From a virus (lineage: Duplodnaviria; Caudoviricetes): DNA of 58,253 nucleotides. Each line of letters opens with the position of its first letter. Within the stretch, counting starts at the first letter, position 1. The stretch lies in IMG/VR virus record IMGVR_UViG_3300021962_000125, positions 1 to 58,253 of that record. The stretch is one strand, 5' to 3'. Under the pieces are notes generated by a model that was not told where the DNA came from, searched no databases, and saw nothing but the letters and a program-made list of their open reading frames with translations. Positions 26,301 to 52,035 of this stretch are shown here, piece after piece. The position numbers and the translations under genes were made by a program.

Positions 26301-29300
26301 GTAGAAATCCCAATAAGACCTGATACAACGGCAGAAATTGGTTCATAATTGAATATATGTAGTCCGTTTCCAGAATCAACGAAGTTTACATACTCTTGTG
26401 TTTTATAATTAATATCTTTTGCCTGGGTTGCTGCAATACCAACCAAAGATAGTTTGAAATTGTCTTCATCTACTTTTGTTACATAATAAGTTGAGGTAGT
26501 AGACAATCCAACAACTGGGCTATCAGTATAATTATATGTTATAATTTCTCCACTTTCATATCCATGATTAGAAATTCTTACCGTATTTGATGCAGTGTCA
26601 ATTCCAGAAGAGTTTGTTGTAGTCTTCTTGTTTTCATAATTACTTCCGTAATTAATTATTGATATTGATCCTATTTTTTTCTTTTTATTTGTGGATTTAA
26701 ATCTATGGATTCCCTTTCCAGTATTAGTAATGGATATAGTGTTTATTCCTAAAATACTATCAGAATATGTTCTATGAAGTTTAACTTTCGTAGAATCAAC
26801 AACAGAAACATAATATGATGAATTTGTTGATAATCCGCCGATAATTGTTTGTCCCTGTGGATCATATACAACTTGCTCATAATCCCTAAATTTATGATCC
26901 TCAATAAAAGTTATAGATGAATTAGAGGCATTGATAGCACCAGAAGTCTGGTTAGCATTTATATCTGAATAATGGTCAAATGAAACTAAATTTGCTTTAG
27001 CCTTTGCACCAAAACCATTGCCTCCATAAATTGTTATATTCGGTTCAGTTAAGTAATCAAATCCACCATCAATAATATCAATTCTTTCCAAAGAACCTTT
27101 GACCGAACAATAAGCAGTTGCACCCGATCCAACCGAATCTGATATTTGAAGCGTTGGTGGGTTTATAATATCATAACCAGAACCAGATGCTATGGGAGAA
27201 ATTGACTCTAATGGTCCATAAAAGATATTGTCTTTTGACTTGTAATTAAGTATTTCTACACCATTTACCAAAATTCCAGTTGTCCCAGAAATAGTTTTGT
27301 AATCCTGGTCATTGGAATTTATTGGGTCAGATACTTTTCTAATAAGTTTTTGTGGTTCTAATTGTTTTGTTTCTAAAGAACTTTCAGAAACAAAAGAGGC
27401 AAATTCTAATTTATGATTTTGTATCGTTCCAGATACTGATAGGAATTTATTTGAGTATAAATTAGGTCTACTTTTTGAAAGTCTGATTGTAGTTTCGTTA
27501 ACTTTTTTTATAAAGTAAAATCCTTCAGTTATTCCGGACAAAGTTCCAGAACCTGTACTTGATCTATAGAATACTTGATCTCCACTGTAGAATGGATGTC
27601 TACCAATGTTTAGATCAGTTCCCTCAAAGGTGCCAGAGAATAATAAAGCTTTATCGTTTACATTAATTTTTTGATTTAGATATGTTGGAAGAGATGGTGC
27701 GGCAACATATAATGATTTTTGATCATCGGTATAAACATTTTGAACATTTGTAGTATATTCAATAAGATTTGGATAATTAATTGATTCTAGTCTTGACAAT
27801 ATTTTTCTTAATTCATAATTAAAACTAACATCTAGAACTTCTTGACACGATACAATTATAGATTTTTTGTTATTAAAAGATACAACAAATGCAAATTTTT
27901 CTGCTCCTTGTCTCCCATTTGCGGGAATGATAGAAACCCTGTCTCCAATAACAAAAGAATGTTCGTCATAGAAGTTGACTATGTAAGAATTATTTGAAGA
28001 ATCGAGTAATCTTATAGACTCTGATTCGTATGATGTTGATAGATTAAAAAACCAATTGTTAAACTTATAATCGTCTAAAGAATCTCCTAAAGTTTTAATG
28101 ACAATAGGATCTCCTGAAGAAAATAGAGGATTTTTCTCAGATAACACTACATCTGACAATACTCCAGTTACTCTAAACTTAATAGTTCCCAAATCATCGG
28201 AACCATAAGCATAAACATTTGCTTTAATTTCGGATCCTTTTAAAATTGGTTGTGTGATTCCAGAACAATTTAAAAACTGTGTGAGCGTTTTATCTTTATA
28301 CGTAACTACAAGTTGAGTTCCATTTTCTAAATCTACTAAAAGTTCTCCAGATTGTGGAAATCCTACAGTAGAATCAACATCAAGAGACGTTGAACTTGGT
28401 GTAAATGCGTCTACATTTACTGCTTTGTTAATAATATCGGTAATTGATATTGTTTTGGGGTGAATTGAAAAATCACCAAATATAGTTCCCTCAACGTCAA
28501 TATCCCTTTGATATCCAGAATCTAAACTAATTACATAATATTCCTTTTCCCCTCTTTGAATTTTTTCAATTTGGGTTACTGTCCCTCTTGCTTTTGGTAA
28601 AAAAGAATTTTGATCTTGGTATATTGTTCTGTTTAATAAATTTAAAATATCTCCTTCAACTGCTTCAACTACCAGATCTTTTGTTACTTTATATTGTGCA
28701 TCCGATGGTTGGATTAAATAATCTTGAGGTCTAATAACTTCAACATCTTTTCCATATAAGGCTCTAAACAAAATTTCAAAAGATCTTTCTGTTCCTTTTG
28801 ATGAATAAAAATCTTTTGCTTGTTTTAGAAATAATCCTTCATTTAAAGATGAATAAAATTCTCTATCTTCAAATCCTGGCGTTAATTGAACTTTTAATTT
28901 TTTAAAAAACTGCTGAAGAAATAGAACACTGAGATTTGATACCTTAGATTTAGCAGTATGATTATCGGATAAAGAATTTGAAAAGGTTAAACTACCGGAT
29001 CCTTCTAAAGAGGTTATTCCACTAAATCCTCTTATACATCCAGTGAAAGATGTTGAGGTTTTTTCTGTATATGTAATTATTTCAGAATTTATTAAAAGAA
29101 GACCATACGAATCTGGAAATCCTGCAGTTGACTCCACATTAATCGTAGTATCAACAAATGAAATATCAGATGTAAGTGTGGTAGAATCTACCAAATTAGA
29201 TAAGTTATCTACTTTTATGTACTTGTCAAGGTTTTGAATCAAGTCATAAGAAGCCCCTTGATATTCCAAAGACAAATAATATTGTTTTAAAAATTCTGAT

Positions 29301-35049: not shown

Positions 35050-35253
35050 TCACGCAGAAGGCATAACACCTTGGATCATCAATTCGCAGTTGGATTCGGT
35101 CCACTCTGCAGCAACGATTTCACTGTGCAGAACATCACCTTCAGACCACTCATTGTGCAGACGCTCATACCAGGCGTCGAAGAGTTCCATACTCTGAGCG
35201 GCGAGAACTTGGAAGGCATTCTCGATAGCGAAGTTCAGAACGGTTTGAGACAT
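35050..35253 (-). CDS. Hypothetical early protein
   Basis: ORF track; downstream of repeat copy 1. Confidence 0.65.
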   Translation of the reverse strand: MSQTVLNFAIENAFQVLAAQSMELFDAWYERLHNEWSEGDVLHSEIVAAEWTESNCELMIQGVMPSA

Positions 35254-35278
35254 TTAAGGTCGTTTGAGTTGGTGTCTA

Positions 35279-35307
35279 TACTACTGATGCACTTTGAAGG
35301 GCCCAGT
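35279..35307 (-). repeat. 29-bp element copy 1
   Basis: ACTGGGCCCTTCAAAGTGCATCAGTAGTA. Confidence 0.95.
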
Positions 35308-35337
35308 ATTGTTCACTGAACCGGTCTTAAGTGTTAC

Positions 35338-35586
35338 TTAGAAGTCGAACACATCGCTATTGATCTGGATGACATTTACAGCAGGATCATTCCACTCAAC
35401 ACCATCAGGAGTTTGTGTCATGAATTCGCTGATATTTGCAACGAACTGCTTATAGTCAACACAACGACGAGCGATGTTATACAAACCCTCATCATTGCTG
35501 ATCCAGAGTGCAACATTCCAGGTCTCATAATTCTCCCACCCGTTATACGAAGTGTCGAGAACATTGCTTTGGAAAGTGGTGCTCAC
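35338..35586 (-). CDS. Conserved phage protein (YNGWxNYETWNVALW family)
   Basis: Motif recognised; sole gene between copies 2 and 1. Confidence 0.8.
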   Translation of the reverse strand: MSTTFQSNVLDTSYNGWENYETWNVALWISNDEGLYNIARRCVDYKQFVANISEFMTQTPDGVEWNDPAVNVIQINSDVFDF

Positions 35587-35605
35587 TGTGTGGGTTTCGT
35601 CCTTA

Positions 35606-35634
35606 CACTACTGATGCACTTTCAGGGGCCCAAT
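35606..35634 (-). repeat. 29-bp element copy 2
   Basis: ATTGGGCCCCTGAAAGTGCATCAGTAGTG. Confidence 0.95.
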
Positions 35635-35659
35635 AGTGTTCACTGTGCGTCCCTATGTG

Positions 35660-36139: not shown

Positions 36140-36147
36140 TATAAATA
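36140..36147 (+). promoter_or_regulatory. T4 late promoter TATAAATA for the plus-strand endonuclease
   Basis: Exact consensus 27 nt upstream of the start. Confidence 0.8.
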
Positions 36148-36173: not shown

Positions 36174-37187
36174 GTGGCATATATCTACTCAATCACCAAC
36201 CTTCAGAATAGCAAACTCTACGTCGGAAAGACTACGCAACCCAACCCATATGATAGATGGAAGCAACACCTACAGAACGCAAGAAGTAAGGATAATTTAG
36301 CAGAGAACAATTCATCTCACTCTATGCCTATTGTTCGTGCCATATGTAAGTACGGAGCAGACAACTTTAAGTTTAGAGTATTGGAAGAATGTAGCGATGA
36401 TAATGTTAATGAACGTGAAACCTTTTGGATAAACAAACTTGATACTTGTGGTAAGAATGGGTATAACATTACGTTAGGTGGTGATGGTGTAAAGAAACCA
36501 CAAAAGTATTGGGCAAATCATCCACATTCTAAAGCAGTGAGTTGTTATACATTAGAAGGTGAATGGGTTAGAGACTATGAGACTATGGGATTAGCAGCAA
36601 TAGATGTAAGCGGAAAGAAAAAAAGTTCACCTATTCGTTTTTGTATTAAAGGTGTTACATTTCAGGCATTTGGTTATAGATGGGCTTGGAAAGGTGAACA
36701 ACCTAAAGTAGTAGAAAAGAGAGTGAATGTTCGCGGTGTTGTGTATGGTATCAATCCAACATTAGGACGCAAAAAGATGTGGAAATCACAAGCAGATGCT
36801 GCAGAAGAAATAACTGGAAATCGTAAGAATAACTCTAATCTTTTACTTTCAATACGCAGTCCTGATAATAACAAATGGCAAGTAAATGGGTGGTATTTGT
36901 TTAGATCAAAACCAACAGATTGGAAACCAGCAACAAAGACAAGATCAACAGAACACTATAAAAAAGCAGCAGCAATATCAAATGAAAAAAGAAAGAAACC
37001 TGTCTATGGAGTGAATATTAAAACTGGCAAAATCGTAGAGTTTGAGAGTATGAGCGAAGCATCATTTTTTATCAAAGGTGAAGGAAACTACAAAGGAGTT
37101 GCTAACATCACCAACAACATTGAACGTATAAAGAATGGGCAAACTTGGTGCAATGCTTATGGTTACAGATGGTACGAAAAAGCATAA
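36174..37187 (+). CDS. GIY-YIG homing endonuclease with repeated NUMOD1-like helix-turn-helix modules
   Basis: YIYSITN...LYVGKT...RWKQH, ERETFWI, GYNITLGGDG; repeated S..EAA...AYGYRW modules. Confidence 0.9.
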   Translation: MAYIYSITNLQNSKLYVGKTTQPNPYDRWKQHLQNARSKDNLAENNSSHSMPIVRAICKYGADNFKFRVLEECSDDNVNERETFWINKLDTCGKNGYNITLGGDGVKKPQKYWANHPHSKAVSCYTLEGEWVRDYETMGLAAIDVSGKKKSSPIRFCIKGVTFQAFGYRWAWKGEQPKVVEKRVNVRGVVYGINPTLGRKKMWKSQADAAEEITGNRKNNSNLLLSIRSPDNNKWQVNGWYLFRSKPTDWKPATKTRSTEHYKKAAAISNEKRKKPVYGVNIKTGKIVEFESMSEASFFIKGEGNYKGVANITNNIERIKNGQTWCNAYGYRWYEKA

Positions 37188-37655: not shown

Positions 37656-37970
37656 TCAGTTCAAACGCATACCAGAGAAGAAAGGAAGTGGACCACCTTC
37701 ATAGTTAATGAACCATTGACCTTTCTTCTGGAAGACATACTCATCTCCACAGCCGTGTGCTTGAAGAAGTGCATTAAGACGCGATTTTGTGGTGTTTGAT
37801 TGATACCCACCATCGAACAATTCGATCCAGGTTTCGCCAATTCGGGCAATCAAATTACCGTACAGAAAGACATCACTGGAGTTGGTATAGTTGATGACTT
37901 CAGTGTTATCTTTCTTCCAATCCTTTTGATTCAGGATTGCATCATTCATTTGCTTTTCGATGACTCGCAT
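37656..37970 (-). CDS. Conserved phage early protein
   Basis: MRVIEKQM...LYGNLIA...DGGYQSNTTKSRLNAL. Confidence 0.8.
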   Translation of the reverse strand: MRVIEKQMNDAILNQKDWKKDNTEVINYTNSSDVFLYGNLIARIGETWIELFDGGYQSNTTKSRLNALLQAHGCGDEYVFQKKGQWFINYEGGPLPFFSGMRLN

Positions 37971-37990
37971 TGTGCTTTGTGTGTTGCTTA

Positions 37991-38019
37991 TACTACTGAT
38001 GCACTTTCAAGGGCCCAGT
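37991..38019 (-). repeat. 29-bp element copy 3
   Basis: Exact consensus; upstream stop at 38021. Confidence 0.97.
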
Positions 38020-38020
38020 T

Positions 38021-38305: not shown

Positions 38306-38536
38306 TCAGTCGAAACGTGAAGAAAGATCAGGACCAGGATTTTCGAGATGTGCTACACTATCGGCAACAGATTCTTGAGAAAGTGCAAACTGAACCTTTT
38401 TTCCATTGTAGTAAATGTCAAAGACAGATTGCACATAAGGTGTTAGATTACCTTCAGAATCCCAGGCATTTCGTGTATGTGAAGTCTCAACGATTTGGTA
38501 GACTTTAGAGGTGAGAGGTGAAACGTAAGTGCTCAT
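38306..38536 (-). CDS. Hypothetical early protein; ATG overlaps repeat copy 4
   Basis: ORF track. Confidence 0.75.
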   Translation of the reverse strand: MSTYVSPLTSKVYQIVETSHTRNAWDSEGNLTPYVQSVFDIYYNGKKVQFALSQESVADSVAHLENPGPDLSSRFD

Positions 38537-38564
38537 ACTACTACTGCACTTTCAAGGGCCCAGT
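38536..38564 (-). repeat. 29-bp element copy 4
   Basis: ACTGGGCCCTTGAAAGTGCAGTAGTAGTA; the upstream ORF reads into it and stops inside (…TGPLKVQ*). Confidence 0.95.
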
Positions 38565-38807
38565 TGTTACACTTTCAATCATTTCATTCACATATTCTTC
38601 GTCATAGAACTGCGAAATCTCTTCGATTAACTCTTCTGGAAGTGAGAAGTCGCGGCGGATGTTTTCTTCAATCGTTTCGCTTGCAAATTGTACCAAACTG
38701 TCGAGGTCCATACCATCAACAATCGACTCAACGTAGATTGCAAGCAGTTTATCGTATTGGTCTTGAGTAAGTTCCATTTTGTTTGAGAAATTGGGGAGGG
38801 AAATCAT
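38541..38807 (-). CDS. Small acidic protein, similar to 34826..35011
   Basis: YVESIVDGMDLDSL...EELIEEI. Confidence 0.75.
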   Translation of the reverse strand: MISLPNFSNKMELTQDQYDKLLAIYVESIVDGMDLDSLVQFASETIEENIRRDFSLPEELIEEISQFYDEEYVNEMIESVTTGPLKVQ

Positions 38808-39034
38808 TGAATAACAGTGTTCACATTCGGGTCAAAAGTAACTTCAGAGATCACATCAAAATCATCAGTCATCTTGACATAATTCCAGAGAGTGTCAGTC
38901 TCATCATCTACATTTTCCTGATAAAGGTGAATGAAACCGTTCTCATCTTGCTTTACATATGCACCATCATAATTCTCATCATCGAATACATAACCAGATG
39001 CAATCAGTGCTTCAATGAAAGTCATAATCTTCAC
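38804..39034 (-). CDS. Small acidic hypothetical protein
   Basis: ORF track; ATGA overlaps. Confidence 0.75.
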   Translation of the reverse strand: MKIMTFIEALIASGYVFDDENYDGAYVKQDENGFIHLYQENVDDETDTLWNYVKMTDDFDVISEVTFDPNVNTVIQ

Positions 39035-39192
39035 CAGTTAATGAGTGTAGCAATGTTCCCAAGTTTATTCTGTTCGTCTACAATCTCCATCGCGTGATTG
39101 TATGTCTTGACGGAAATGTAACGTGCTTTTCCTCTTGTCTCTGGAAACAGATTCAGTTTGTCAATGATACGAACTGTGTTGGTATGTTTCAT
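39031..39192 (-). CDS. 53-aa protein MKHTNTVRIIDKL...
   Basis: Manual translation; ATGA overlaps on both sides. Confidence 0.7.
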   Translation of the reverse strand: MKHTNTVRIIDKLNLFPETRGKARYISVKTYNHAMEIVDEQNKLGNIATLINW

Positions 39193-39431
39193 TTCAGAAC
39201 GTGGCGATAATCAAGAGATTTGATGCACCAACCATAGGCAGTTGTAATCTCTTCAACTAAATCATCCTCATCATCTGCCTCCCAGATTTGACCGATTGTT
39301 GCTTGAGTGACATAATCAAACTCCAAGAATCCATCACATTCTGCATCGTGTTCTGGGGATTGAGGATCACCACAATAGGGACACTCATCATCAAAATCAA
39401 ACTCAATATCAGTAACTTGGAATTGCATCAA
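39189..39431 (-). CDS. Acidic protein with CPYC insert
   Basis: FQVTDIEFDF...WEADDEDDLVEEIT...GWCIKSLDY. Confidence 0.75.
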   Translation of the reverse strand: MMQFQVTDIEFDFDDECPYCGDPQSPEHDAECDGFLEFDYVTQATIGQIWEADDEDDLVEEITTAYGWCIKSLDYRHVLK

Positions 39432-39694
39432 ACTGCACCTGCCATAAAGTTGTATTCTTGCACCAGGTTAATGTTATCACCAGTGATCACATATTCAAGT
39501 GCCAGGCGATCATCAATCTCACGTTGTGCATCTTTTTTGGTCAGACACTTTTGAGAGATCGTATCAATACCCTTCCAAGAAAGAACCTTGAGAGTGTAGT
39601 TGGAACAATCCTCAATCGGATAGAAACCGACGATCATTGTACCGTCTTTAGACTGAAGCGTAGGAAACTCAATCATCGTAGGAGTGGTGTTCAT
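39428..39694 (-). CDS. Hypothetical early protein; ATG overlaps repeat copy 5
   Basis: ORF track. Confidence 0.75.
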   Translation of the reverse strand: MNTTPTMIEFPTLQSKDGTMIVGFYPIEDCSNYTLKVLSWKGIDTISQKCLTKKDAQREIDDRLALEYVITGDNINLVQEYNFMAGAV

Positions 39695-39722
39695 ACTACT
39701 GATGCACTTTCAAGGGCCCAGT
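39694..39722 (-). repeat. 29-bp element copy 5
   Basis: Exact consensus. Confidence 0.97.
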
Positions 39723-39727
39723 TTGAA

Positions 39728-39907
39728 TCAGAGACCGTTAATGTAGTCAGCAAGTGCATCTTTGTACTCTTTTTCAGTCTCAAAGATGCGACCGTGAATG
39801 TTGAGAGGAAACTTCTTCTCAACACCTGCAGCTGCTACCATTCGGCAGTCTGCTTCATCGTAACCCATTTCAATCAGGTTTTGAACGTAAGGATTGTAGT
39901 TTGTCAT
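39728..39907 (-). CDS. 59-aa protein MTNYNPYVQNLIEMGYDEADCR...; sole gene between copies 6 and 5
   Basis: Manual translation. Confidence 0.75.
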   Translation of the reverse strand: MTNYNPYVQNLIEMGYDEADCRMVAAAGVEKKFPLNIHGRIFETEKEYKDALADYINGL

Positions 39908-39935
39908 ACTACTGATGCACTTTCAAGGGCCCAAT
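39907..39935 (-). repeat. 29-bp element copy 6
   Basis: ATTGGGCCCTTGAAAGTGCATCAGTAGTA. Confidence 0.97.
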
Positions 39936-40078
39936 TACTTGAACGTTGCATTAACTCCAACAATTTTAGCAGTCGGGTTTCTGATTTGTGCAGTTTCGCG
40001 GGCATCTTTCGGAGAGTTAGCATACACTTCCTCTTTGAAGACTTTGCCGCCCACGTATAATTGTACTTCATATTTCAT
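39935..40078 (-). CDS. 47-aa conserved phage protein MKYEVQLYVGGKVFKEEVYA...ARETAQIRNPTAKIVGVN
   Basis: Manual translation; stop overlaps copy 6. Confidence 0.8.
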   Translation of the reverse strand: MKYEVQLYVGGKVFKEEVYANSPKDARETAQIRNPTAKIVGVNATFK

Positions 40079-40269
40079 AGTGTTTGAAACTCCTGTGCTT
40101 CTTTGATGTTAGAATCGAAAAACTTTTGCAGAATGGAACTGATCACAGGTTGCCATTCTTTATCTTTAATTAGGTCACGATTTTGTGCTTCAACAAGAAA
40201 CTTAAGGATGCAAGTCTCTTCATTAGCAGTGAACTTAACACGAGTGAATGTGTAACCGTCAGTCATCAA
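40075..40269 (-). CDS. Hypothetical protein
   Basis: ORF track. Confidence 0.7.
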   Translation of the reverse strand: MMTDGYTFTRVKFTANEETCILKFLVEAQNRDLIKDKEWQPVISSILQKFFDSNIKEAQEFQTL

Positions 40270-40424
40270 TCATCTCCGAAGTTATTAACAAGAAAGTCCT
40301 CAAGTTCACAAAGTTCCACCTCATCCAAGGAGGAAATGTAGTTGTGCAAAGTATCTACCAAGACCCCATTATTCTTTTGGCAGGTTTCATACAGAAACTC
40401 AAAAAGTTGCGTTTTGTTAGTCAT
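40266..40424 (-). CDS. 52-aa acidic protein MTNKTQLFEFLYE...
   Basis: Manual translation. Confidence 0.65.
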   Translation of the reverse strand: MTNKTQLFEFLYETCQKNNGVLVDTLHNYISSLDEVELCELEDFLVNNFGDD

Positions 40425-40426
40425 AA

Positions 40427-40708
40427 TCAAACCAGAGAAAGTTCAGGGGCAGGTTCTACCTTAAATGTACCAAGTCGGTTGCAAGTAATACTCACAGCGT
40501 GAGCAGGAGCACCGAGTTCATCAACAACTTCCCACCAATCTTCACCCTCTTCAATGACAACATATCCGAAAGTTCCAGGTTGAGAGAGTTGACGACGACC
40601 ACACTGTTTGGCATCATTTACATCATCAAATCGTTGCTTACGATTAAACCAACCGTTTCGTGCAACATCATCAGAAGGACCGAAAGTAATGCAAAGAAAG
40701 TTAGACAT
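40427..40708 (-). CDS. Hypothetical protein
   Basis: ORF track; tight packing. Confidence 0.7.
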   Translation of the reverse strand: MSNFLCITFGPSDDVARNGWFNRKQRFDDVNDAKQCGRRQLSQPGTFGYVVIEEGEDWWEVVDELGAPAHAVSITCNRLGTFKVEPAPELSLV

Positions 40709-40710
40709 AA

Positions 40711-40980
40711 TCAGTTAGCGTACAGTGGGAGTTTCTTACGGAGACGGATTGAATCATCAATCACCTCACCAATCTGTTCGTAAATGTAGTCGGAACCGCC
40801 TACATCAGCGAGCACATCTTGAGTGAAAAGAGAAGAAAAATACTTCTCTTGATTGTCTTCACCATCAAACTCAACAACATCGTGTTGAGTGAATACAAAC
40901 GCAGCACAGGGAGCGTTCTCACCTTGTACCTCAATCATTTGGTTGATAGAGTCACGAAGTTCAGAAAGTGTGCGGTACAT
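40711..40980 (-). CDS. Hypothetical protein (QGENAPCAAFVFT)
   Basis: ORF track. Confidence 0.75.
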   Translation of the reverse strand: MYRTLSELRDSINQMIEVQGENAPCAAFVFTQHDVVEFDGEDNQEKYFSSLFTQDVLADVGGSDYIYEQIGEVIDDSIRLRKKLPLYAN

Positions 40981-40982
40981 AA

Positions 40983-41126
40983 TCAGTTTTTGTTGCGAGG
41001 GTTAATGTCAATTAAGCGGTCAAGTGCTTCACCAATCGTAGAGCGAACTTGCTCATCTTTCAGTGATACTTGCTCATACACTTCGTAAAGGGAAATGTAA
41101 ATGTCGTCCCATTGAGTTTGTGTCAT
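40983..41126 (-). CDS. Small hypothetical protein MTQTQWDDIY...
   Basis: Internal ATG of the track ORF. Confidence 0.65.
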   Translation of the reverse strand: MTQTQWDDIYISLYEVYEQVSLKDEQVRSTIGEALDRLIDINPRNKN

Positions 41127-41128
41127 AA

Positions 41129-41368
41129 TCAGGCAGGAAGAATACAGAAAGTGCCACACCAGTTGCGAACCCATTGTAGAGTTTCGTAGTAAGATGTGCG
41201 CGGATTGCTCATCTCCATTGTAGAACCATTGCGGGGATTGTGTGCAACGGCAACAAAGAGATTATCGCACTCTTTATCAGTGATCTGCTCAATCCACATT
41301 TGATTGACTTTGCCTTCCTTCCAATCGGTGTGGTAGGAGTAGACTTCGGAAACGATGGTGTTGCTCAT
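41129..41368 (-). CDS. Hypothetical early protein; ATG overlaps repeat copy 7
   Basis: ORF track. Confidence 0.75.
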   Translation of the reverse strand: MSNTIVSEVYSYHTDWKEGKVNQMWIEQITDKECDNLFVAVAHNPRNGSTMEMSNPRTSYYETLQWVRNWCGTFCILPA

Positions 41369-41396
41369 ACTACTGATGCACTTTCAAGGGCCCAGT
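41368..41396 (-). repeat. 29-bp element copy 7
   Basis: Exact consensus. Confidence 0.97.
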
Positions 41397-41401
41397 TTCA
41401 A

Positions 41402-41656
41402 TCACCAGCGGCCTTGTTGGATGAGAATCTTTTTGATTTCAGTATAAATGAACTGACGAAGTTTAGTGTCGGTAGTGTTATCAAAAGCATAATAAAGACG
41501 ATTCAAATACTCATTCTGTGTGACACCAATGTTACCATCACCACCGATCTCATTGAGTGAGGAACCTGCTTTAGCTTTGGGTTTTCCCCAATTCCCAGTT
41601 ATGCGACCTTCAGTACGAAGTTTAGGGCGAATCTTTGAGAGGTTAGAGTAAGTCAT
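41402..41656 (-). CDS. Basic hypothetical protein
   Basis: ORF track. Confidence 0.75.
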   Translation of the reverse strand: MTYSNLSKIRPKLRTEGRITGNWGKPKAKAGSSLNEIGGDGNIGVTQNEYLNRLYYAFDNTTDTKLRQFIYTEIKKILIQQGRW

Positions 41657-41826
41657 TCATCCTCCTCATAAGGGAACATTTCATCATACTCTTCATCAGT
41701 CAGAGTAAGATACTGAACATTAGCATTCTTGTGTTCTTCAGCATACATTAACTGATAATGAGCGAAAGAAGAAGGGTCAGAACTAGCAAACTCTAACAGA
41801 CCATCAACAAAACAAAGGTAGTTCAT
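41653..41826 (-). CDS. 57-aa acidic protein MNYLCFVDGLLEFAS...EEYDEMFPYEEDE
   Basis: Manual translation; ATGA overlaps on both sides. Confidence 0.7.
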   Translation of the reverse strand: MNYLCFVDGLLEFASSDPSSFAHYQLMYAEEHKNANVQYLTLTDEEYDEMFPYEEDE

Positions 41827-42254
41827 TTTGCGTACAAATAACCACCCGACCAGTCTGCGTTCTCCAGCAGATATTCACGATCTTTAATCAATCGCAGATC
41901 GTAGCGAACACCTTTGGCAGGAGATTTCCAAGTGGCAGACTTATACACTTCGCCAGTGTTCTTGTCAACGAAGCAATGAACACTACGCGATCCACCACCA
42001 CTCACAAAGATGACTTTATGATACTTTTTACCAGTCTCAATGGTATAATCAATGTCGCACTTGCCAGACTTGAGTTCATCAATCTTGCGCTGATGATACT
42101 CTTGATTGTCAACATCATTCACGAACTTTTGATGACCGCGAATAGAATACTCACGATAATTGTCCTTCAGTGCTTCAATCAGCAGCAGAGTATTCTTGAG
42201 GACATTCTCTGCAATGGTTTGTTGTGCCTGTGCTTGCATTGTAGTTGTGCTCAT
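41823..42254 (-). CDS. Conserved phage protein (GKKYHKV...SVHCFVD...YKSATWKSPAKGVRY family)
   Basis: Motif recognised; ATG overlaps copy 8. Confidence 0.8.
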   Translation of the reverse strand: MSTTTMQAQAQQTIAENVLKNTLLLIEALKDNYREYSIRGHQKFVNDVDNQEYHQRKIDELKSGKCDIDYTIETGKKYHKVIFVSGGGSRSVHCFVDKNTGEVYKSATWKSPAKGVRYDLRLIKDREYLLENADWSGGYLYAK

Positions 42255-42282
42255 ACTATGGATGCAGTTTCAAGGGCCCAGT
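42254..42282 (-). repeat. 29-bp element copy 8
   Basis: ACTGGGCCCTTGAAACTGCATCCATAGTA. Confidence 0.93.
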
Positions 42283-42287
42283 TACAT

Positions 42288-43199
42288 TCACCAATTCTTT
42301 TGGAGTGTAAAGTTTTGACGACTAAACTCTTCACGGTTCACGATCTTGTATGATCCAAACTTGTTAGTCATTACATACCCTTCGTGATCGCTTAATTCTC
42401 CATCAATCTCACACGAAATATCGGTGTCAGACTCAATGAAGAAGAACAAATCCATCTTGATAGACTCAACCAACTTCCACAAACGCAGCAGGTTGATGTC
42501 AACATCATAATTTTCTGCAATCTCGTGCTCGCAGACCTCCTTACCCTCACGAATGTAGGAATTGATGACTTTTTTGAGTTCTGCTGCTTGTTTGTCACTC
42601 ACAAACGTGCAAAGCGTGCTCATTTGCTTTGCAAACTTGCAGAAGTCTTCAATATCATCACGATGTGGGCAAATAGATGCTTCAGGTTGCACCCATTTCA
42701 CATCCAGGGTATCAACAAACTGTTTGCTGATAGGATGTGCAACAGCATTGCGAAGATCATCCTCACAATCATACTCGGTGTGAGGTGCAATGATTACACT
42801 TTGCTCAATCACCTCATTGAACTTGTAAGTGATCGTATTGGGGCGATAAGTATCACTCCCAGCAAAACCAATAAAATCACCTTGATAGACATAATTTGTG
42901 CGAGGTAGACTATCAAAGCAAGCGTGAAGAATAGACGCAACTTTGCCCTGATGGTTCGCATCAATTTCATCGTGAGAATGATTGATTTTGATCTTTACTT
43001 TATTGAACACAGATTTGGTGCCCACAAAGAACTTACCATTTGCAGGATTGCGACCCCACACAATAGCAGGAGCACCATCAATCTTTACACTGATGCTAGA
43101 GTTTGCTTCGTGCATCCAATCAAGCACGCTCAAGTTTCCAGTCAAAACTTCATCTTCAGGATGCTCAAGGTGTTTGTTTTGCATTGGTTGCTTACTCAT
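42288..43199 (-). CDS. DUF6267-like protein with ligase/nucleotidyltransferase-type KxDG motif
   Basis: HLEHPED, VKIDGAPAIVWG, FVGTKSVFN, YQGDF, HEGYV, KIVNREEFS. Confidence 0.75.
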   Translation of the reverse strand: MSKQPMQNKHLEHPEDEVLTGNLSVLDWMHEANSSISVKIDGAPAIVWGRNPANGKFFVGTKSVFNKVKIKINHSHDEIDANHQGKVASILHACFDSLPRTNYVYQGDFIGFAGSDTYRPNTITYKFNEVIEQSVIIAPHTEYDCEDDLRNAVAHPISKQFVDTLDVKWVQPEASICPHRDDIEDFCKFAKQMSTLCTFVSDKQAAELKKVINSYIREGKEVCEHEIAENYDVDINLLRLWKLVESIKMDLFFFIESDTDISCEIDGELSDHEGYVMTNKFGSYKIVNREEFSRQNFTLQKNW

Positions 43200-43227
43200 A
43201 CTACAGATGCACTTTCAAGGGCCCAGT
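43199..43227 (-). repeat. 29-bp element copy 9
   Basis: ACTGGGCCCTTGAAAGTGCATCTGTAGTA. Confidence 0.95.
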
Positions 43228-43228
43228 A

Positions 43229-43502: not shown

Positions 43503-43760
43503 TCAGGCGGAACGACGCTTGCTGGTTTTGGTAACTGTAGCAGGTTGCTCCACTACATCAGCAGGAGAAAGTTGTGCTTTACCAAACTCAATCAGTGTAT
43601 CAACAAACTTCAGAAATTGAAGAGTTGCAACACGAACTTTCTCACTTCCATTGTTCTCATTAAAGGAACGAATAAAGAATTGAACTACACCAACAACAAC
43701 CGCACTGATAGTAGCGATGTTCTTGACAAGAGTATCAACAAACGTCCAGTAAAAAGTCAT
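43503..43760 (-). CDS. Small membrane protein
   Basis: One hydrophobic segment; downstream of copy 10. Confidence 0.7.
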   Translation of the reverse strand: MTFYWTFVDTLVKNIATISAVVVGVVQFFIRSFNENNGSEKVRVATLQFLKFVDTLIEFGKAQLSPADVVEQPATVTKTSKRRSA

Positions 43761-43797
43761 AGTTTGTGTTAGAAACTGCAGTGAGAGCGGTGCCTCA

Positions 43798-43826
43798 CAT
43801 CATAGATGCACTTTCAGGGGCCCAGT
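43798..43826 (-). repeat. 29-bp element copy 10
   Basis: ACTGGGCCCCTGAAAGTGCATCTATGATG; directly abuts the MTase stop at 43827. Confidence 0.92.
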
Positions 43827-44567
43827 TCAATTCATCGCAGATAGTAGTGGATTGTTGATGCGATCTTGTGCGATCTTAAAGTATTTTTCCTCCATTTCAA
43901 TTCCAATGAACTTTCTGTTTGTATTCATACAAGATACACCAGTTGTTCCACTACCCATACAAGGGTCAAGAACAGTATCACCCTCATTAGAAAATGTGCG
44001 AATCAAATACTCATAAAGAGCAATAGGTTTTTGAGTTGGGTGATACTTACCTTCACTTTCAGCAGTCTTAAAATACAGGACACTACGAGGATACCTCAAT
44101 CCAGTATCATTTTTAACATGAACTGCCTTTGTCTGCACACCATAGGATTCAGTATCTCTCACAGCAGTTCCTTTATCATACGGTGTCCCTTGTGTCATTT
44201 GTGGATTGTATGTTGGTTGTTTCTTATAGAACACCACAATATCTTCATGAGCACGAAGCGGTTGCTTTTTGGCATTTAGATAACCAGTTGCCTTTGACTT
44301 TTCCCATACCATCGTATATCTGAAATCACGATAGTTTGAAGAAATCAAAACACTTGTAAATGGTTGTGCTGCTGTGGAGATAATGGCACAATTTGGCTTA
44401 CAGATGCGATCAATATGATCCCAAAATGTAGGGTAATCAATGATAGTATCCCATTCATTCCTCTTATTCAGAGTTCCGTATGGGAAATCAGTCAACAATA
44501 AATCAACGCTTTGGGGTTCAATCTGCCCCAAAACGTTGAACATGTTATCATTGAACAACTCAATCAT
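43827..44567 (-). CDS. DNA N6-adenine/N4-cytosine methyltransferase, beta class
   Basis: Motif IV TDFPYG, WEK, HPTQKP, motif I VLDPCMGSGTTG, FIGIE; ATGA overlap with the upstream gene. Confidence 0.92.
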   Translation of the reverse strand: MIELFNDNMFNVLGQIEPQSVDLLLTDFPYGTLNKRNEWDTIIDYPTFWDHIDRICKPNCAIISTAAQPFTSVLISSNYRDFRYTMVWEKSKATGYLNAKKQPLRAHEDIVVFYKKQPTYNPQMTQGTPYDKGTAVRDTESYGVQTKAVHVKNDTGLRYPRSVLYFKTAESEGKYHPTQKPIALYEYLIRTFSNEGDTVLDPCMGSGTTGVSCMNTNRKFIGIEMEEKYFKIAQDRINNPLLSAMN

Positions 44568-45142
44568 TTCTTCAACCACTCCACAAACTTATTGACCTCT
44601 TGAATATCCAGTTGGAAATCGGTATTATACTCTTCCATGTAGATTGCACGGGTTGCGTTACGCTTTTTGTGCTTATTGACGATAAAGACATTCACCTCTT
44701 TACCAGTCATTTTCTTGAAATATGCACAATAATAATTGAAAGAATCTTGCGATACGCACTCTTGACCAGCAAGAATAGCATACTCTACATTATTAGGGAC
44801 ATCAGGAGATGCGTCCAATTCAATAAAGTCTAGCACAGCACGTTTGAGATAGCAAGCATCCAAATAGCACTTGGATTCAACTGCTTTTACCATCGCACCA
44901 TCGCGATAGATGTGCTTATCAACTTGAAGATTCTTGAGGCAAACACCATCAATCTCTTCAGTTCGCTTATAGTCATTCTTCTTTGCTTCAAGACTATTAT
45001 CAGCACAAATACGCTGAATAAAGTTCTCAAAGATTACACCAGATGCGTTTCTTGCTTTACCACCACCATCCTCTTTATGCAGGCGAGGAAGATCCTCAAC
45101 TTCAGCATTGTAAGCATCAATGATTAGATTGAGGTTAGACAT
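44564..45142 (-). CDS. Putative PD-(D/E)xK restriction endonuclease
   Basis: G.IFE...QVDKHI...AVESKCYLD; translationally coupled to the MTase. Confidence 0.6.
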   Translation of the reverse strand: MSNLNLIIDAYNAEVEDLPRLHKEDGGGKARNASGVIFENFIQRICADNSLEAKKNDYKRTEEIDGVCLKNLQVDKHIYRDGAMVKAVESKCYLDACYLKRAVLDFIELDASPDVPNNVEYAILAGQECVSQDSFNYYCAYFKKMTGKEVNVFIVNKHKKRNATRAIYMEEYNTDFQLDIQEVNKFVEWLKK

Positions 45143-45156
45143 GTAATCCAATGTTC

Positions 45157-45185
45157 TATTAGTGATGCACTTTCAAGGGCCCAGT
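45157..45185 (-). repeat. 29-bp element copy 11
   Basis: ACTGGGCCCTTGAAAGTGCATCACTAATA. Confidence 0.95.
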
Positions 45186-45186
45186 T

Positions 45187-46011: not shown

Positions 46012-46512
46012 TCATCTGTAAGGTTGACCCTTCTCTGCTTGTTTTCTTCTCCATTCTCTCATATAAAGAGCGTGAGGTGATACACTTTCTTCTGGTGCAT
46101 ATTTACCCTTGTTTGGCGGTATTCTACCTTTAAGACTTTCCTTCATTTTGACTATACTTTCTTGAGTATGTTTTCTTCCGTAGAAATGATTTTTACTTCC
46201 CATTCTACTTTGAGACATTCTACTCCTTGTTGTTTCCGTGAGAGTTGCTCCAGAAGTTCCATCACCACCATTAGTTCTGTTCCAAAGAATACCAGTTCCT
46301 AAATCTTTTCTACCCAATACATTGATTAGATAGATTTCGTGCTTAAATGCGTCCTCTTCGTTATCGAAATGTTTGAGGATTAAAACTCTATCTACTGGAG
46401 GAACAAAAACATATCCTTTGTGGTCTCTATATGCTCTTTTATCTTTTCCCTTACCAATGTAGTAAGGTGTTCCGTCCTCACGCAGATATGCGTAGGTGTA
46501 GTATTCTTTCAT
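46012..46512 (-). CDS. GIY-YIG-like (Seg-type) homing endonuclease with NUMOD3
   Basis: YTYAYLREDGTPYYIGKG, EIYLI, NRTNGGDG, NHFYGRKHTQES. Confidence 0.88.
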   Translation of the reverse strand: MKEYYTYAYLREDGTPYYIGKGKDKRAYRDHKGYVFVPPVDRVLILKHFDNEEDAFKHEIYLINVLGRKDLGTGILWNRTNGGDGTSGATLTETTRSRMSQSRMGSKNHFYGRKHTQESIVKMKESLKGRIPPNKGKYAPEESVSPHALYMREWRRKQAEKGQPYR

Positions 46513-46513
46513 C

Positions 46514-46586
46514 GTAAGTCTTGGCGTGACTATTAGTATTTATAGCATAAATGTGGGACTTACGCAACCAATCCGCCAAGACTTAC
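46514..46586 (-). promoter_or_regulatory. 13-bp inverted repeat over the HEG translation start, with late promoter TATAAATA (46537-46544) in the loop
   Basis: GTAAGTCTTGGCG (46514-46526) / CGCCAAGACTTAC (46574-46586). Confidence 0.8.
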
Positions 46587-46606: not shown

Positions 46607-47794
46607 TTACCGCCGCACTACACTATCAACCATCTCACCTTTCTCAAACACAGCATCAACGACTCGCTGAAGTGCTCGCTCTGTAGATACTCCAACTTTG
46701 GAATATACAGGCACAACACAGAGACCGAACACCTTCTCTTTGCCACCAAGGCGAAGAACACGACCAATAGTTTGAGTCATTTCGATCACATCCATATTGC
46801 GAAGAAATACAACAGCTTCTAGTTCGCTCACATTGATTCCTTCACTCAAGATAGAGCGATGGAAGCAAACAAACTTCTTGTTAGGATCACGACCCCAAGC
46901 ATTGAGTGTATCAAAAAATACCTCACGATTCACCTTCTTACCATCAATAATCGCTCCAGTTTTTGAGGTGATATAGAGGTAAGAATAACCACGCTGATTT
47001 AGTTGGGCAGCACAGTCAGTATGAGACATCAGGTTGATAAGTTGCTTCGCAGACTTAACACAGACCAGGATTTTCTTGCAATCAATATCCTCCAGAGTAT
47101 CCATAAGATTACTACTATCACACTCTGCAGTTACCTGCTTCGGTGCAAGAACATCAAACTTCTTTGCTACAATTTTAGGAGCAATGATGTATCCACCATC
47201 AACAAGTTCAGGAGCAGAAACGCGACAGATAATGTCACCATAGACATCACGATCATTCATTCCAGGTTTAGAAGGAGTGAGCGAAGTCTTCCTAGTTGCA
47301 GTGAAGAAATAGCAGCGACGTGCATTAGCAGCAAAGTGTTCAGTCGCAGGGAAAAAGTGACGCTGAACGCTATTATGGGCTTCGTCAAAGTAAATCGTAT
47401 CCACATCAATTCCTGCCACTTGCAGACGTGACAGAGAGTTGTAGGTGGTTACAATCAGGCGATGACTGTCAGCATTAGCATCAACCCAGCGACGAATCTC
47501 ACGAGGGCGAGTAGAAGATTCGTGGTGAGTTTCGCCACTATGAACGTGGAATACTTTTGCGTTGGTGATAAACTCCAGGAACTCGCTGGAGAGTTGCTCT
47601 GCCAAGAGAATACGAGGAGCAACAACAACAATGGTCTGGGGAGTTTCAGACTGCAACTCACGCAGACAATCATAGATCATCTTCAGAGTCTTGCCACCAC
47701 CAGTAGGAACAATGACTTGACCTTTATCATGCTGTTGCATAGCAGCAACACCACGTTCCTGATGAGGGCGAAGATTGATCAGATGAGGAATCAT
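46607..47794 (-). CDS. SF2 DEAH / ResIII-type helicase
   Basis: LRPHQ, PTGGGKT, FDEAH, FTAT, LSEGIN, QTIGRVLR. Confidence 0.93.
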   Translation of the reverse strand: MIPHLINLRPHQERGVAAMQQHDKGQVIVPTGGGKTLKMIYDCLRELQSETPQTIVVVAPRILLAEQLSSEFLEFITNAKVFHVHSGETHHESSTRPREIRRWVDANADSHRLIVTTYNSLSRLQVAGIDVDTIYFDEAHNSVQRHFFPATEHFAANARRCYFFTATRKTSLTPSKPGMNDRDVYGDIICRVSAPELVDGGYIIAPKIVAKKFDVLAPKQVTAECDSSNLMDTLEDIDCKKILVCVKSAKQLINLMSHTDCAAQLNQRGYSYLYITSKTGAIIDGKKVNREVFFDTLNAWGRDPNKKFVCFHRSILSEGINVSELEAVVFLRNMDVIEMTQTIGRVLRLGGKEKVFGLCVVPVYSKVGVSTERALQRVVDAVFEKGEMVDSVVRR

Positions 47795-48039: not shown

Positions 48040-48058
48040 TGTGTTGTGTGTCGTCTTA

Positions 48059-48087
48059 TATTACTGACGCACTTTCAAGGGCCCAGT
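48059..48087 (-). repeat. 29-bp element copy 12
   Basis: ACTGGGCCCTTGAAAGTGCGTCAGTAATA; abuts the stop at 48088. Confidence 0.95.
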
Positions 48088-48723
48088 TTACTTACCAGGC
48101 GTGAGTGAGGATTGATATTCAGATGCTGGTTTCTCTTTCTTCTTCTGAAGATCTGCCTGCAATCTCTTACCAGTTCTTACAATTCTCTTTTTCTCTTCTC
48201 TAGTGTAAGGTCTCTTTTCTCCCTTTGGAAGTAGAGAACCTTTGATCATATGATCTTCTTTATCACCAGAAGTTTCTTTCTTTGCTGGTGCTTTCTTTGA
48301 GAGAAGTTGTGTTGCTTTCTTCTCTGCTTCTTTTGCTTTTGGTTTCTCTGCTGTTACAGTTTCACCTTTCTTTTTAGCAGCAATTCTAGCAAGTGCTGCT
48401 CTCTTTCTTTCTTCTTTAGCGGCAGCAGCTGCTTTTGCTTTTACATCAGCAGCACCTCTTTCTTTTTCAGGTTGCTGAACTCTTGTTGATGCTTGGCGTT
48501 GAGTTCCAATATCCTTTCTTTCTTTATATCCAGCAGGAACTCTCTTAACTTTACCAGTCTCGGGATCTTTGACTGATTTCATTCTTCTTTTTTCTGCTTC
48601 CGATTTCTTACGTTCAGCAGAAATACGACCACCTGCACCCATCGTGCGGATTTGCGAACCAGACATTACTTCTTTATCGTAAGTTGCTTCGCAAAGAGTC
48701 ATAAAATCGCTGAACGTAATCAT
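48088..48723 (-). CDS. Lys/Ala-rich basic protein; candidate capsid-internal DNA-binding protein
   Basis: N-terminus MITFSDFMTLCEA; CTAAATA late-like motif at 48748-48754. Confidence 0.7.
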   Translation of the reverse strand: MITFSDFMTLCEATYDKEVMSGSQIRTMGAGGRISAERKKSEAEKRRMKSVKDPETGKVKRVPAGYKERKDIGTQRQASTRVQQPEKERGAADVKAKAAAAAKEERKRAALARIAAKKKGETVTAEKPKAKEAEKKATQLLSKKAPAKKETSGDKEDHMIKGSLLPKGEKRPYTREEKKRIVRTGKRLQADLQKKKEKPASEYQSSLTPGK

Positions 48724-48750: not shown

Positions 48751-49269
48751 TTAGATTGTATCATTTTTTTGTTTTTTTCTATACTCTCTCATATAAAGTG
48801 CATGAGGTGTAACTTCATTGATTGGTTTTGTTTTTTTATTACGCAAGTTTTCTCTAAAATTTAATGAGTGTTTTATTCCTTTATTACCTTGTCCATTTTT
48901 ATTACCTTTCATTGCATCACTTAATTTTTTTCTTGTTTTATTGTTTACTTCTTTTCCTTTCAATTTATCACTTATTTTTAATTTTGTCTCATCTTTCATC
49001 ATAACGCCGCTGCCTCCTTCTCCACCATTTGTATGATTTTGCAATATTCCAGTACCAATATCTTTACGACCAAATAATGCTATCATATAAACTTCGTGAT
49101 TAAATGCTTCTTGCTCTGTTAAATTCTTTTTTAGAAATAACCTTCTTTCTTTTGGTGGTAGGTTTACATTGTGTTGCTTATCATTTATTCTTTTATTTCT
49201 TCCTTTACCAATGTAATAAGGAGTACCGTCTTCACGCAAATAAGCGTAAGTGTAAAAGTTGTTATTCAT
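48751..49269 (-). CDS. GIY-YIG-like homing endonuclease, paralog of 46012..46512
   Basis: Identical YTYAYLREDGTPYYIGKG; GRKDIGTGIL.N.TNGGEG; C-terminal PHALYMRE. Confidence 0.88.
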   Translation of the reverse strand: MNNNFYTYAYLREDGTPYYIGKGRNKRINDKQHNVNLPPKERRLFLKKNLTEQEAFNHEVYMIALFGRKDIGTGILQNHTNGGEGGSGVMMKDETKLKISDKLKGKEVNNKTRKKLSDAMKGNKNGQGNKGIKHSLNFRENLRNKKTKPINEVTPHALYMREYRKKQKNDTI

Positions 49270-49279
49270 TCTTGTCTTG

Positions 49280-49350
49280 AAGAGTCGCAATAATATTTAT
49301 ACAAGAAAAGAGGCATTTCTGCCTCCTCTCTACTTAAAGATGCGACTCTT
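49280..49350 (-). promoter_or_regulatory. 10-bp inverted repeat upstream of the HEG start, with late promoter TATAAATA (49294-49301) in the loop
   Basis: AAGAGTCGCA (49280-49289) / TGCGACTCTT (49341-49350). Confidence 0.75.
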
Positions 49351-49556: not shown

Positions 49557-49694
49557 TCAGAAATCAATGTTAGAGTTAATCAGTTTATTGAAAGATTTAG
49601 TATCTTCTTCTTCCTCAAAGAGATCTTCATTCATTTCTTCAACAAAGTCAAAGGAAGAAAACTCTTCAATTTGGAGATCATCAAAGCAGTCCAT
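49557..49694 (-). CDS. 45-aa very acidic protein MDCFDDLQIEEFSSFDFVEEMNEDLFEEED...
   Basis: Manual translation; downstream of copy 13. Confidence 0.7.
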   Translation of the reverse strand: MDCFDDLQIEEFSSFDFVEEMNEDLFEEEEDTKSFNKLINSNIDF

Positions 49695-49713
49695 AAATCA
49701 GATGAGTTGCTTA

Positions 49714-49742
49714 CATAACTGATGCACTTTCAAGGGCCCAGT
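49714..49742 (-). repeat. 29-bp element copy 13
   Basis: ACTGGGCCCTTGAAAGTGCATCAGTTATG. Confidence 0.95.
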
Positions 49743-49747
49743 TTGAA

Positions 49748-51568: not shown

Positions 51569-51985
51569 TCATACAGCAAGGGCAGCAGAGGGGATTTCAA
51601 CAATTTCAGGAAGTTTGCTATCATCAAACTGGTGCATATTATAGCACACCCATTCACCATTGCGGAATACATAAGCATACTCTTCGCTGTTACCAGGCAG
51701 CAGATACTCACAAAGGTCAGCATCAAGGCGAGGGGGGCAATCTTCACCACGTTGAGAGTAATATTCGGGACCATAAACACCTTTTACAGCACTATCATCC
51801 CAACGAGAATCAGTCCAGCAAGAAGACATATCGCCACCATCTATGAGTTCTGCTGCCTTTTCATAAGAATTATAATGAGTCTTTAGGATACGACCCAACC
51901 AGGACTCATAACCGTCCCAATGATGATACACAGAGAGAATAGGACCATCTTTAAGTTCAAGACCGATTCGTGCTCGCGTTGACAT
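51569..51985 (-). CDS. Conserved phage protein (MSTRARIG...SVYHHWDGY...EEYAYVF)
   Basis: Motif recognised; first gene after copy 14. Confidence 0.82.
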   Translation of the reverse strand: MSTRARIGLELKDGPILSVYHHWDGYESWLGRILKTHYNSYEKAAELIDGGDMSSCWTDSRWDDSAVKGVYGPEYYSQRGEDCPPRLDADLCEYLLPGNSEEYAYVFRNGEWVCYNMHQFDDSKLPEIVEIPSAALAV

Positions 51986-52001
51986 TTGATCGTGGTGCTT
52001 A

Positions 52002-52030
52002 CACTATAGAAGCACTTTCAGGGGCCCAAT
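52002..52030 (-). repeat. 29-bp element copy 14
   Basis: ATTGGGCCCCTGAAAGTGCTTCTATAGTG. Confidence 0.9.
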
Positions 52031-52035
52031 ATATC

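Follow-up and report, generated by a model that had tools for sequence, protein, structure and literature searches.

T4-like cyanophages switch on their early genes without the T4 proteins that retarget the host polymerase, which are absent from these phages. In 2016, Doron et al. (ISME J 10:1437) reportedly found that early genes in Syn9 and P-TIM40 use a novel regulatory element unlike host promoters, with host-like promoters serving the Syn9 middle genes. Here, we describe a repeated element of about 40 nt in a 58,253-nt stretch of viral DNA (IMG/VR record IMGVR_UViG_3300021962_000125, positions 1 to 58,253; hereafter the window), which is the whole of that virus record and has an estimated completeness of 28%. 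We suggest, at a rough probability of 0.55, that the element is an early-type promoter of one uncultured T4-like cyanomyovirus lineage, made up of a –10-like box and a lineage-specific upstream box. Our best reading of the sequence is that it would also double as a cassette junction and often supply a working start codon. Marine T4-like cyanophages are described as having early, middle, and late expression classes (PMC5780444), and motA and asiA are described as absent from cyanomyoviruses (PMC5780444; PMC2984593).

The closest described behavior is that of the promoter-early stem-loops (PeSLs) of RB49- and phi1-type T4 phages, which Arbiol et al. (2010; PMC2839356) describe as many near-identical promoter cassettes before ORFans, at sites of genome shuffling. 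Like PeSLs, the copies of the element are short, near-identical cassettes in a hyperplastic region of small open reading frames (ORFs), placed between a stop and the next start and in gene orientation. Also like PeSLs, they coincide with points of differing gene content: homology blocks of 150 nt or longer, compared across five related arrays, had 38 of their 238 ends at element edges, where random placement gave 4.2 ± 2.0. The near-identical copies mark where related phages differ in gene cassettes, and are the seams along which accessory genes pass between these phages. Unlike PeSLs, the element has no σ70-consensus –35/–10 pair 16 to 18 nt apart (its internal TTGAAA is only 9 nt from TAGTAT), no stem-loop or terminator (folding z = +0.24, see below), no Shine–Dalgarno (SD) sequence, and no separate AT-rich upstream region that we could see, and its start codon lies inside the element or 13 to 36 nt after it.

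Two further systems offer partial parallels. T4 middle promoters combine a –10 box with a MotA box in place of the –35 hexamer. The element appears similar in having a TAnnnT –10 hexamer and a conserved, non-σ70 box at the –35 place, but the sequence of that box and its distance to the –10 differ, and the genes here look early rather than middle. Leaderless-mRNA promoters of Actinobacteria, Deinococcus, and archaea carry a –10 box 6 to 8 nt upstream of the ATG. As in those promoters, the start codon here lacks an upstream ribosome-binding motif and holds a fixed place relative to a promoter-like motif; unlike in those promoters, the sole –10-like hexamer of the element overlaps the ATG. A literature search (supplements outside its scope) returned "leaderless" in connection with cyanophages only as reference-list mentions and nothing relevant for GGGCCC in cyanophages.

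Sequence, conservation, and distribution of the element

A repeat search identified 14 direct copies of a 47-nt unit between positions 35269 and 52038 of the window, 70 to 100% identical to the reference copy. A 16-nt core pattern, searched with up to 2 mismatches allowed, hit the same 14 sites, every one a mismatch-free match on the minus strand, whereas dinucleotide shuffles yielded 0.09 ± 0.29 matches, with a maximum of 1. Every copy is intergenic, on the gene strand, and immediately 5′ of an ORF (14/14), the element being a strand-specific signal of fixed length, and all 14 GGGCCC sites of the window lie within copies of the element. We number the element along the gene (minus) strand, taking the T of TGGGCCC as position 0. 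In this numbering, a typical copy reads ACTGGGCCCTTGAAAGTGCATCAGTAGTAT, followed by G or A, followed by AGCAC, and the conserved block (about –3 to +36) comprises an upstream box, ACTGGGCCC-YTGAAAGTGC (–2 to 16), a –10-like hexamer, TAGTAT (22 to 27; variant TATAGT at 20 to 25), and a C/A-rich stretch, RAGCAC (28 to 33). The copies fall into two classes: in the ATG type (copies 4–9), each copy ends in TAGT-ATG and the embedded ATG (26 to 28) opens the ORF listed in Table 1, while the eight copies of the leader type (copies 1–3 and 10–14) continue ATAAG, GTAAG, GTGAG, or ATAGA, with the start codon 13 to 36 nt past position 27.

Much of this description had been given by a first-pass annotation of the window, and it held up on re-examination. 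The blocks TGGGCCC, AAA, and TGC are unvarying in 14 of 14 copies; the last element base in copies 4–9 is the A of the next ATG, with the ORFs confirmed at all six sites; and most other copies do continue with an RTRAG-like sequence and a leader, for which the 14 to 37 nt originally given correspond to our 13 to 36 nt under a different counting convention. The second methionines in three of the proteins (MNTTPTM, MSTTTM, and MSKQPM) and the TATGAT and TATAGT variants of copies 10 and 14 were likewise found as described.

We measured conservation on strict-pattern copies with flanks of 40 nt on the upstream side and 77 nt on the downstream side. Of 206 copies, 202 qualified, the other 4 being too close to the locus end, and these gave 156 unique 117-mers, in which positions 0 to 16 are set by the search pattern and the other positions are informative. 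Outside the pattern we found A–2 in 151 of the 156, C19 in 136, T22 in 151, A23 in 148, G24 in 130, T25 in 153, T27 in 150, A29 in 143, and A32 in 133. T22, A23, and T27, which are among the best-conserved of these, constitute the TAnnnT signature of a –10 box, and TAnnnT is present at position 22 or 20 in 147 of the 156 copies. The internal hexamer is CTGAAA in 117 of them; the "–35-like" TTGAAA is not the consensus. Conservation reaches past the searched core to +36 in both copy classes, and positions 29 to 40 are 84% A+C in ATG-type copies and 73% A+C in leader-type copies. Flanking genes are 67 to 88% identical between contigs, compared with about 90 to 100% for the element copies.

Mutual information among the 156 copies was confined to the neighboring positions 20 and 21, and RNA folding of the 14 window copies (mean minimum free energy –8.3 kcal/mol) was no better than that of shuffled sequences (mean z = +0.24). 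Because there is no long-range covariation and folding does not exceed shuffles, the element is read as sequence, not as RNA structure. The element also closes all three reading frames with stop codons in 115 of 156 unique copies (TGA at 8 to 10, TAG or TAA at 22 to 24, and TGA or TAA at 27 to 29), with a further stop at –10 to –8 in 79 of 156, so that any upstream reading frame is closed ahead of the next gene.

An exact scan of uncultured viral contigs found 192 copies at 110 loci. Copies occupied a single strand per contig in all 22 contigs among the matches listed (the best 80 of the 110 loci) and in 5 of 5 further-examined records. In a complete 219-kb relative (G001), there are 12 copies on one strand, 11 at 199.7 to 213.9 kb and one at 5.0 kb; the number per genome is about 12 to 15. 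Two ocean-survey scaffolds (metagenome contigs; L263, L264, and L269) carry two and three copies, and the lineage therefore extends beyond the contigs of the viral collection. Contig ends, used as a proxy for transcript ends, were scattered near the element (e.g. L251, L270, L323, and L269) without a pile-up among the best 80 of 148 metagenome loci, and are uninformative. A 47-nt copy used as a blastn query found no real match among 50,697 cultured phage records, and scanning Syn9 for a GGGCCC-type element gave background-level matches only. We also considered mimicry of a host sequence and set it aside: a scan of 596 Gb of prokaryote genomes returned at least 120 single matches scattered over unrelated taxa, about the chance level, with no cyanobacterium among the 80 matches listed.

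The embedded ATG as a start codon

An ATG occupies positions 26 to 28 in 84 of the 156 unique copies, the base after TAGTAT being G. Its frame is shut upstream by the in-frame TGA at 8 to 10 and remains open through all 17 available codons in 83 of the 84 copies, compared with 42 of 84 for the +2 control frame; the +1 frame is shut by TGA in 84 of 84. ATGs within 33 nt downstream of the embedded ATG are in frame with it in 54 cases and out of frame in 2, whereas among leader-type copies 32 start codons share the frame of position 26 and 35 do not (Fisher p = 6.6e-10 for the comparison of the two classes). By this pattern, G at position 28 is tolerated only where the resulting ATG is in frame, which means that the embedded ATG is a real start codon used by ribosomes.

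A second in-frame ATG is found in 53 of the 84 ATG-type copies, at +15 (39), +18 (7), +21 (4), or +24 (4), i.e., at positions 41 to 50, which is also where leader-type copies have their start. Overall, a start codon is found either at 26 or no earlier than 41, and hardly ever at 29 to 40. Because the second ATG sits at the leader-type start and positions 29 to 40 are similarly A+C-rich, ATG-type copies look like leader-type copies in which the leader has been turned into an in-frame extension. The remaining 31 of 84 have no second ATG. In protein families such as M-x-x-x-(Y/F)TVRFD and MTNYNPYVQN, the conserved protein starts directly behind the element-encoded residues, and the embedded ATG is the only start there. 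These observations bear on annotation: gene callers may mis-start element-led genes, and the element dictates the four to five opening residues of dozens of unrelated proteins.

The first-pass annotation had pointed to the missing SD as a sign of leaderless mRNAs. The absence itself stands, as SD-like motifs are missing from all 14 element-led genes, but 65 of the 86 other called genes in the window lack one as well (p = 0.037). SD-less starts are thus general in this phage, and the lack of an SD is not diagnostic of leaderless mRNA. Between other window genes, ATGA-type overlaps and tight coupling are the rule. In the three arrays for which the start was captured (the window, G001, and G004), leader-type copies occupy the first four to five places, although these arrays are homologous, so that the order of copy types counts as one weak observation and not as three.

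Promoter reading and alternatives

Where transcription would begin can be judged from the position of the –10-like hexamer. The –10 box of σ70-family promoters lies at –12 to –7, and since the hexamer of the element overlaps the ATG, a σ70-family holoenzyme would be expected to start after the ATG, 5 to 9 nt past the hexamer. We propose that the host multisubunit RNA polymerase takes TAGTAT as its –10 box and starts at about position 32 to 36, the likely first transcribed base being the conserved A32 or A35. Given a start at 32 to 35, the conserved block would cover roughly –35 to +4, matching the footprint of a bacterial promoter, and the GGGCCC box would stand in for the –35 hexamer as the contact for a putative factor or sigma region. 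The embedded ATG would be translated on transcripts coming through from upstream copies, because there is no terminator room between cassettes and most genes here are SD-less; as the first four to five copies are of the leader type, every ATG-type copy would be reachable by such transcripts. Where a second in-frame ATG is present (41 to 50), it would serve the transcripts that begin within the copy. On this proposal, the element would be an unusually sharp early signal (40 nt, nearly invariant, with TAnnnT and GGGCCC boxes) and a good bait for the factor that recognizes it.

This departs from the proposal of the first-pass annotation, which placed the start of leaderless mRNAs at the purine of the element's 3′ end; we find the TAnnnT overlapping the ATG, none 6 to 8 nt upstream of it, and a second in-frame ATG in 53 of 84 copies. 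Its own caveat, that the 3′ end might instead be a –10 box with initiation further downstream, is better supported, both by the conservation of T22, A23, and T27 and by the second ATG. It was right that TTGAAA at 9 nt from TAGTAT is not σ70 geometry (CTGAAA prevailing in relatives, however) and that the element is not the late motif TATAAATA. Its view of the element as a third class beside σ70-like and late sites is reasonable, and the region does hold a few strong σ70-like sites along with late motifs. In total, 55 σ70-like sites were found against 49.4 expected, which is no enrichment, and the element is not among them; those on the gene strand include a few 11-of-12 matches (e.g. 51185-51157 and 35889-35861). 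The late motif has 5 sites against 5.15 expected, among them sites just 5′ of gp15 and of three ORFs of the homing-endonuclease type.

Other candidates for recognition were tried. A σ54-like GG/GC spacing was off by one or two bases on inspection, and cyanobacteria are not known to have σ54. Profile searches of G001 gave no match to the single-subunit polymerase family PF00940 or to the MotA and AsiA families (PF09114 and PF09010), though the control genomes were silent as well, which makes the first result weak and applies to the second in the same way. Within the stretch of the G001 array at G001:199191-202256 (L249), a small 85-aa ORF gave a sub-threshold Sigma70_r4-like helix-turn-helix match (14.6 bits, E = 0.006); as the window contains no counterpart, this candidate was dropped.

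Several points weigh against the promoter as we propose it. The element has no σ70-type –35 at 16 to 18 nt, and no factor is known for the GGGCCC box. A start at 32 to 36 implies short, SD-less leaders of 6 to 17 nt to the first usable ATG, and where an ATG-type copy has no second ATG (31 of 84), transcripts begun at that copy could not serve to express the gene next to it. A terminator-like hairpin (43491-43462) lies 240 nt upstream of the ATG-type copy 9, so read-through into that copy is not guaranteed. The fixed place of the ATG (84 of 156) would be more naturally explained if the element set the 5′ end or ribosome entry. Finally, the 156 copies include many orthologues from related contigs, and counts drawn from them do not represent independent events.

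The strongest competitor is a leaderless promoter, which we regard as possible but less likely than a promoter that starts downstream of the ATG, and in itself as doubtful. Transcription would start at A26 (or the purine at 28), ATG-type mRNAs would begin with AUG while the others would have 13- to 37-nt leaders, and recognition would be non-standard, e.g., by a virion-delivered factor or an unusual sigma. The fixed and real start codon in 84 of 156 unique copies speaks for this, as do the 31 genes without another start and the absence of SD-like motifs from the element-led genes (a trait, as noted, that most other genes share). The near-absence of starts between 26 and 41 would fit mRNAs with either no leader or one sufficient for a ribosome, but the conserved RAGCAC block accounts for the same gap. 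Conservation that runs 10 nt beyond the ATG would suit a promoter with a conserved initially transcribed region, and the A+C-rich 29 to 40 of ATG-type copies, the very short leaders implied by a start at 32 to 36, and the hairpin upstream of copy 9 also favor it. Against it, there is no TAnnnT 6 to 8 nt upstream of A26, where positions 13 to 21 read GTGCATCAG, and 53 of 84 ATG-type copies retain a second ATG at the leader-type position. The leader-type copies at the head of three captured arrays would keep upstream transcripts always at hand, and the (weak) search for a single-subunit RNA polymerase gene found none in the complete relative.

The more specific claim that a third promoter class starts at the A of its built-in start codon, leaving half of the lineage's early genes leaderless, strikes us as unlikely on the sequence. 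If it were true, each such protein would start with an element-encoded M-(S/N/T/R/K)-(T/N) peptide, and recognition could not rest on the normal –10 contact but would call for, e.g., a factor delivered by the virion or a reprogrammed host sigma. A start codon within a –10-like box leaves two options, non-canonical leaderless initiation or expression that depends wholly on read-through.

We consider it quite improbable that the element acts at the RNA level, as an intercistronic translation signal on long early transcripts (a site where ribosomes re-initiate past the preceding stop codon, an operator bound by a translational repressor such as RegA, or a site of RNase processing). The fixed intercistronic distance, with its stop at –10 to –8 and its three-frame stops, the fixed place of the ATG, and the ATGA-type overlaps and tight coupling common among other genes would all suit such a signal. 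Among the core genes reported for cyanomyoviruses is regA (PMC2984593). Yet in 46% of copies the start lies a variable 13 to 45 nt further on, a misfit with an operator at the initiation site; there is neither RNA structure nor covariation, nor, on inspection, complementarity to the anti-SD; and TAnnnT and the 6-bp GGGCCC palindrome are features of the DNA type. As for a sequence that serves only recombination or as a cassette junction, contributes nothing to expression, and is kept alike by gene conversion between copies, the clustering of homology-block ends at element edges (gene boundaries would naturally end homology anyway) and the greater similarity of copies than of flanks are what it predicts, but strict strand polarity, the fixed relation to start codons, the –10-like signature, and selection on the embedded-ATG frame make it highly improbable.

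Genomic context and related repeats

The window is, by its gene content, a fragment of a T4-like cyanomyovirus. Pfam matches at 0.3 to 32 kb are to T4-type terminase, gp15, a neck protein, gp8, gp6, and gp25; those at 35 to 53 kb are to a Kyano_Gp96-family gene, DUF7717, DUF6267, an N6/N4 DNA methylase, a helicase, and homing-endonuclease-like genes, that region being otherwise made up of small ORFs. Megablast of the window gave short matches only, all to Synechococcus cyanomyoviruses. The array region is syntenic with Syn9 gp55-gp93 and is followed by the gp25 and gp6 baseplate genes and a giant fiber gene; because of this gene order, we read the element array as filling the hyperplastic small-gene region of a member of Kyanoviridae.

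Table 1. Copies of the element in the window, with their class and the ORF that each precedes (ORF sizes in aa equal codons).
Copy	Position	Strand	Class	GGGCCC	Start codon	Downstream ORF	Remarks
1	35272..35308	(-)	leader		ATG 24 nt past position 27	67 aa, 35050-35253	
2	35599..35635	(-)	leader		GTG 18 nt on	82 aa, 35338-35586	
3	37984..38020	(-)	leader			Kyano_Gp96-family gene, 37656-37970	
4	38529..38565	(-)	ATG	38556	ATG 38536-38534	76 aa, 38306-38536	
5	39687..39723	(-)	ATG	39714	embedded ATG	88 aa, 39428-39694	second in-frame Met at codon 7
6	39900..39936	(-)	ATG	39927	embedded ATG, sole start	59 aa, 39728-39907	MTNYNPYVQN; no second nearby Met
7	41361..41397	(-)	ATG	41388	embedded ATG	79 aa, 41129-41368	MSNTIVSEVY; no second nearby Met
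8	42247..42283	(-)	ATG	42274	embedded ATG	143 aa, DUF7717 gene, 41823-42254	second Met at codon 6
9	43192..43228	(-)	ATG	43219	embedded ATG	303 aa, DUF6267 gene, 42288-43199	second Met at codon 6; Pfam profile from residue 8
10	43791..43827	(-)	leader		36-nt leader	85 aa, 43503-43760	TATGAT variant
11	45150..45186	(-)	leader			192 aa, then N6/N4 DNA methylase, 43827-44579	
12	48052..48088	(-)	leader			51 aa, then helicase, 46607-47794	
13	49707..49743	(-)	leader			45 aa, 49557-49694	
14	51995..52031	(-)	leader			138 aa, 51569-51985	TATAGT variant; transcriptionally first copy of the array

In the syntenic region of Syn9, the gaps between genes carry a repeat of another kind, GTATTCTATAAGAGTCAAAG with an upstream GTGTCCAC and C-runs (e.g. 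L111 46330-46372), which is followed by an SD-less leader that is C/A-rich in most Syn9 copies. The lake phage DSL-LC02 carries the same type of repeat at L247 5766-5851, 6431-6516, and 7012-7097, with a perfect 6-bp hairpin. The repeat is 65 to 85 nt long and contains TATAAG in Syn9 and TTAAAG in DSL-LC02; blastn placed it at 368 places in 217 cyanophage records. In the window, it had 0 matches at up to 3 mismatches, and in G001, matches were at background. The early element of Doron et al. is presumably this Syn9 repeat, an equation that is our own. Both it and the window element are repeated, non-σ70 elements set between genes ahead of small ORFs. It has in common with the window element a TATAAG-type module, an SD-less leader, the same genomic niche, and restriction to cyanomyoviruses, but the sequences differ, the window element is 40 nt without a hairpin as against 65 to 85 nt (with a hairpin in DSL-LC02), and none of the Syn9-type copies examined contains a start codon. 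Upstream of gp55, a further Syn9 site (43145-43192; L111) shares TGAAA-N-TGC and TAGTATG with the window element, its spacer being one base shorter and its ATG directly followed by TGA. The site was confined to Syn9 and Syn10, and may represent a cultured-phage relative of the element in single copy.

Two strong terminator-like hairpins were seen on the gene strand, of 12 pairs at 43491-43462 (-), within the array, and of 11 pairs at 34600-34573 (-), at the downstream end of the small-gene region. Within the array, a GIY-YIG (SegE-like) homing-endonuclease ORF (36174-37187, +) lies on the opposite strand, with an exact TATAAATA at 36140-36147 (+), 27 nt 5′ of it. The helicase gene is flanked by two related ORFs, 46012-46512 (-) and 48751-49290 (-), which have stretches 85% identical to each other and one of which matches NUMOD3. 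An exact TATAAATA is present just 5′ of each of them, at 46537-46544 (-) and 49294-49301 (-), an arrangement that resembles that of late-expressed free-standing endonucleases. Beyond gp6, two giant ORFs with many internal repeats, 17369-29380 (-) of 4003 codons and 8229-15788 (-) of 2519 codons, probably encode fiber or baseplate proteins, like Syn9 gp101.

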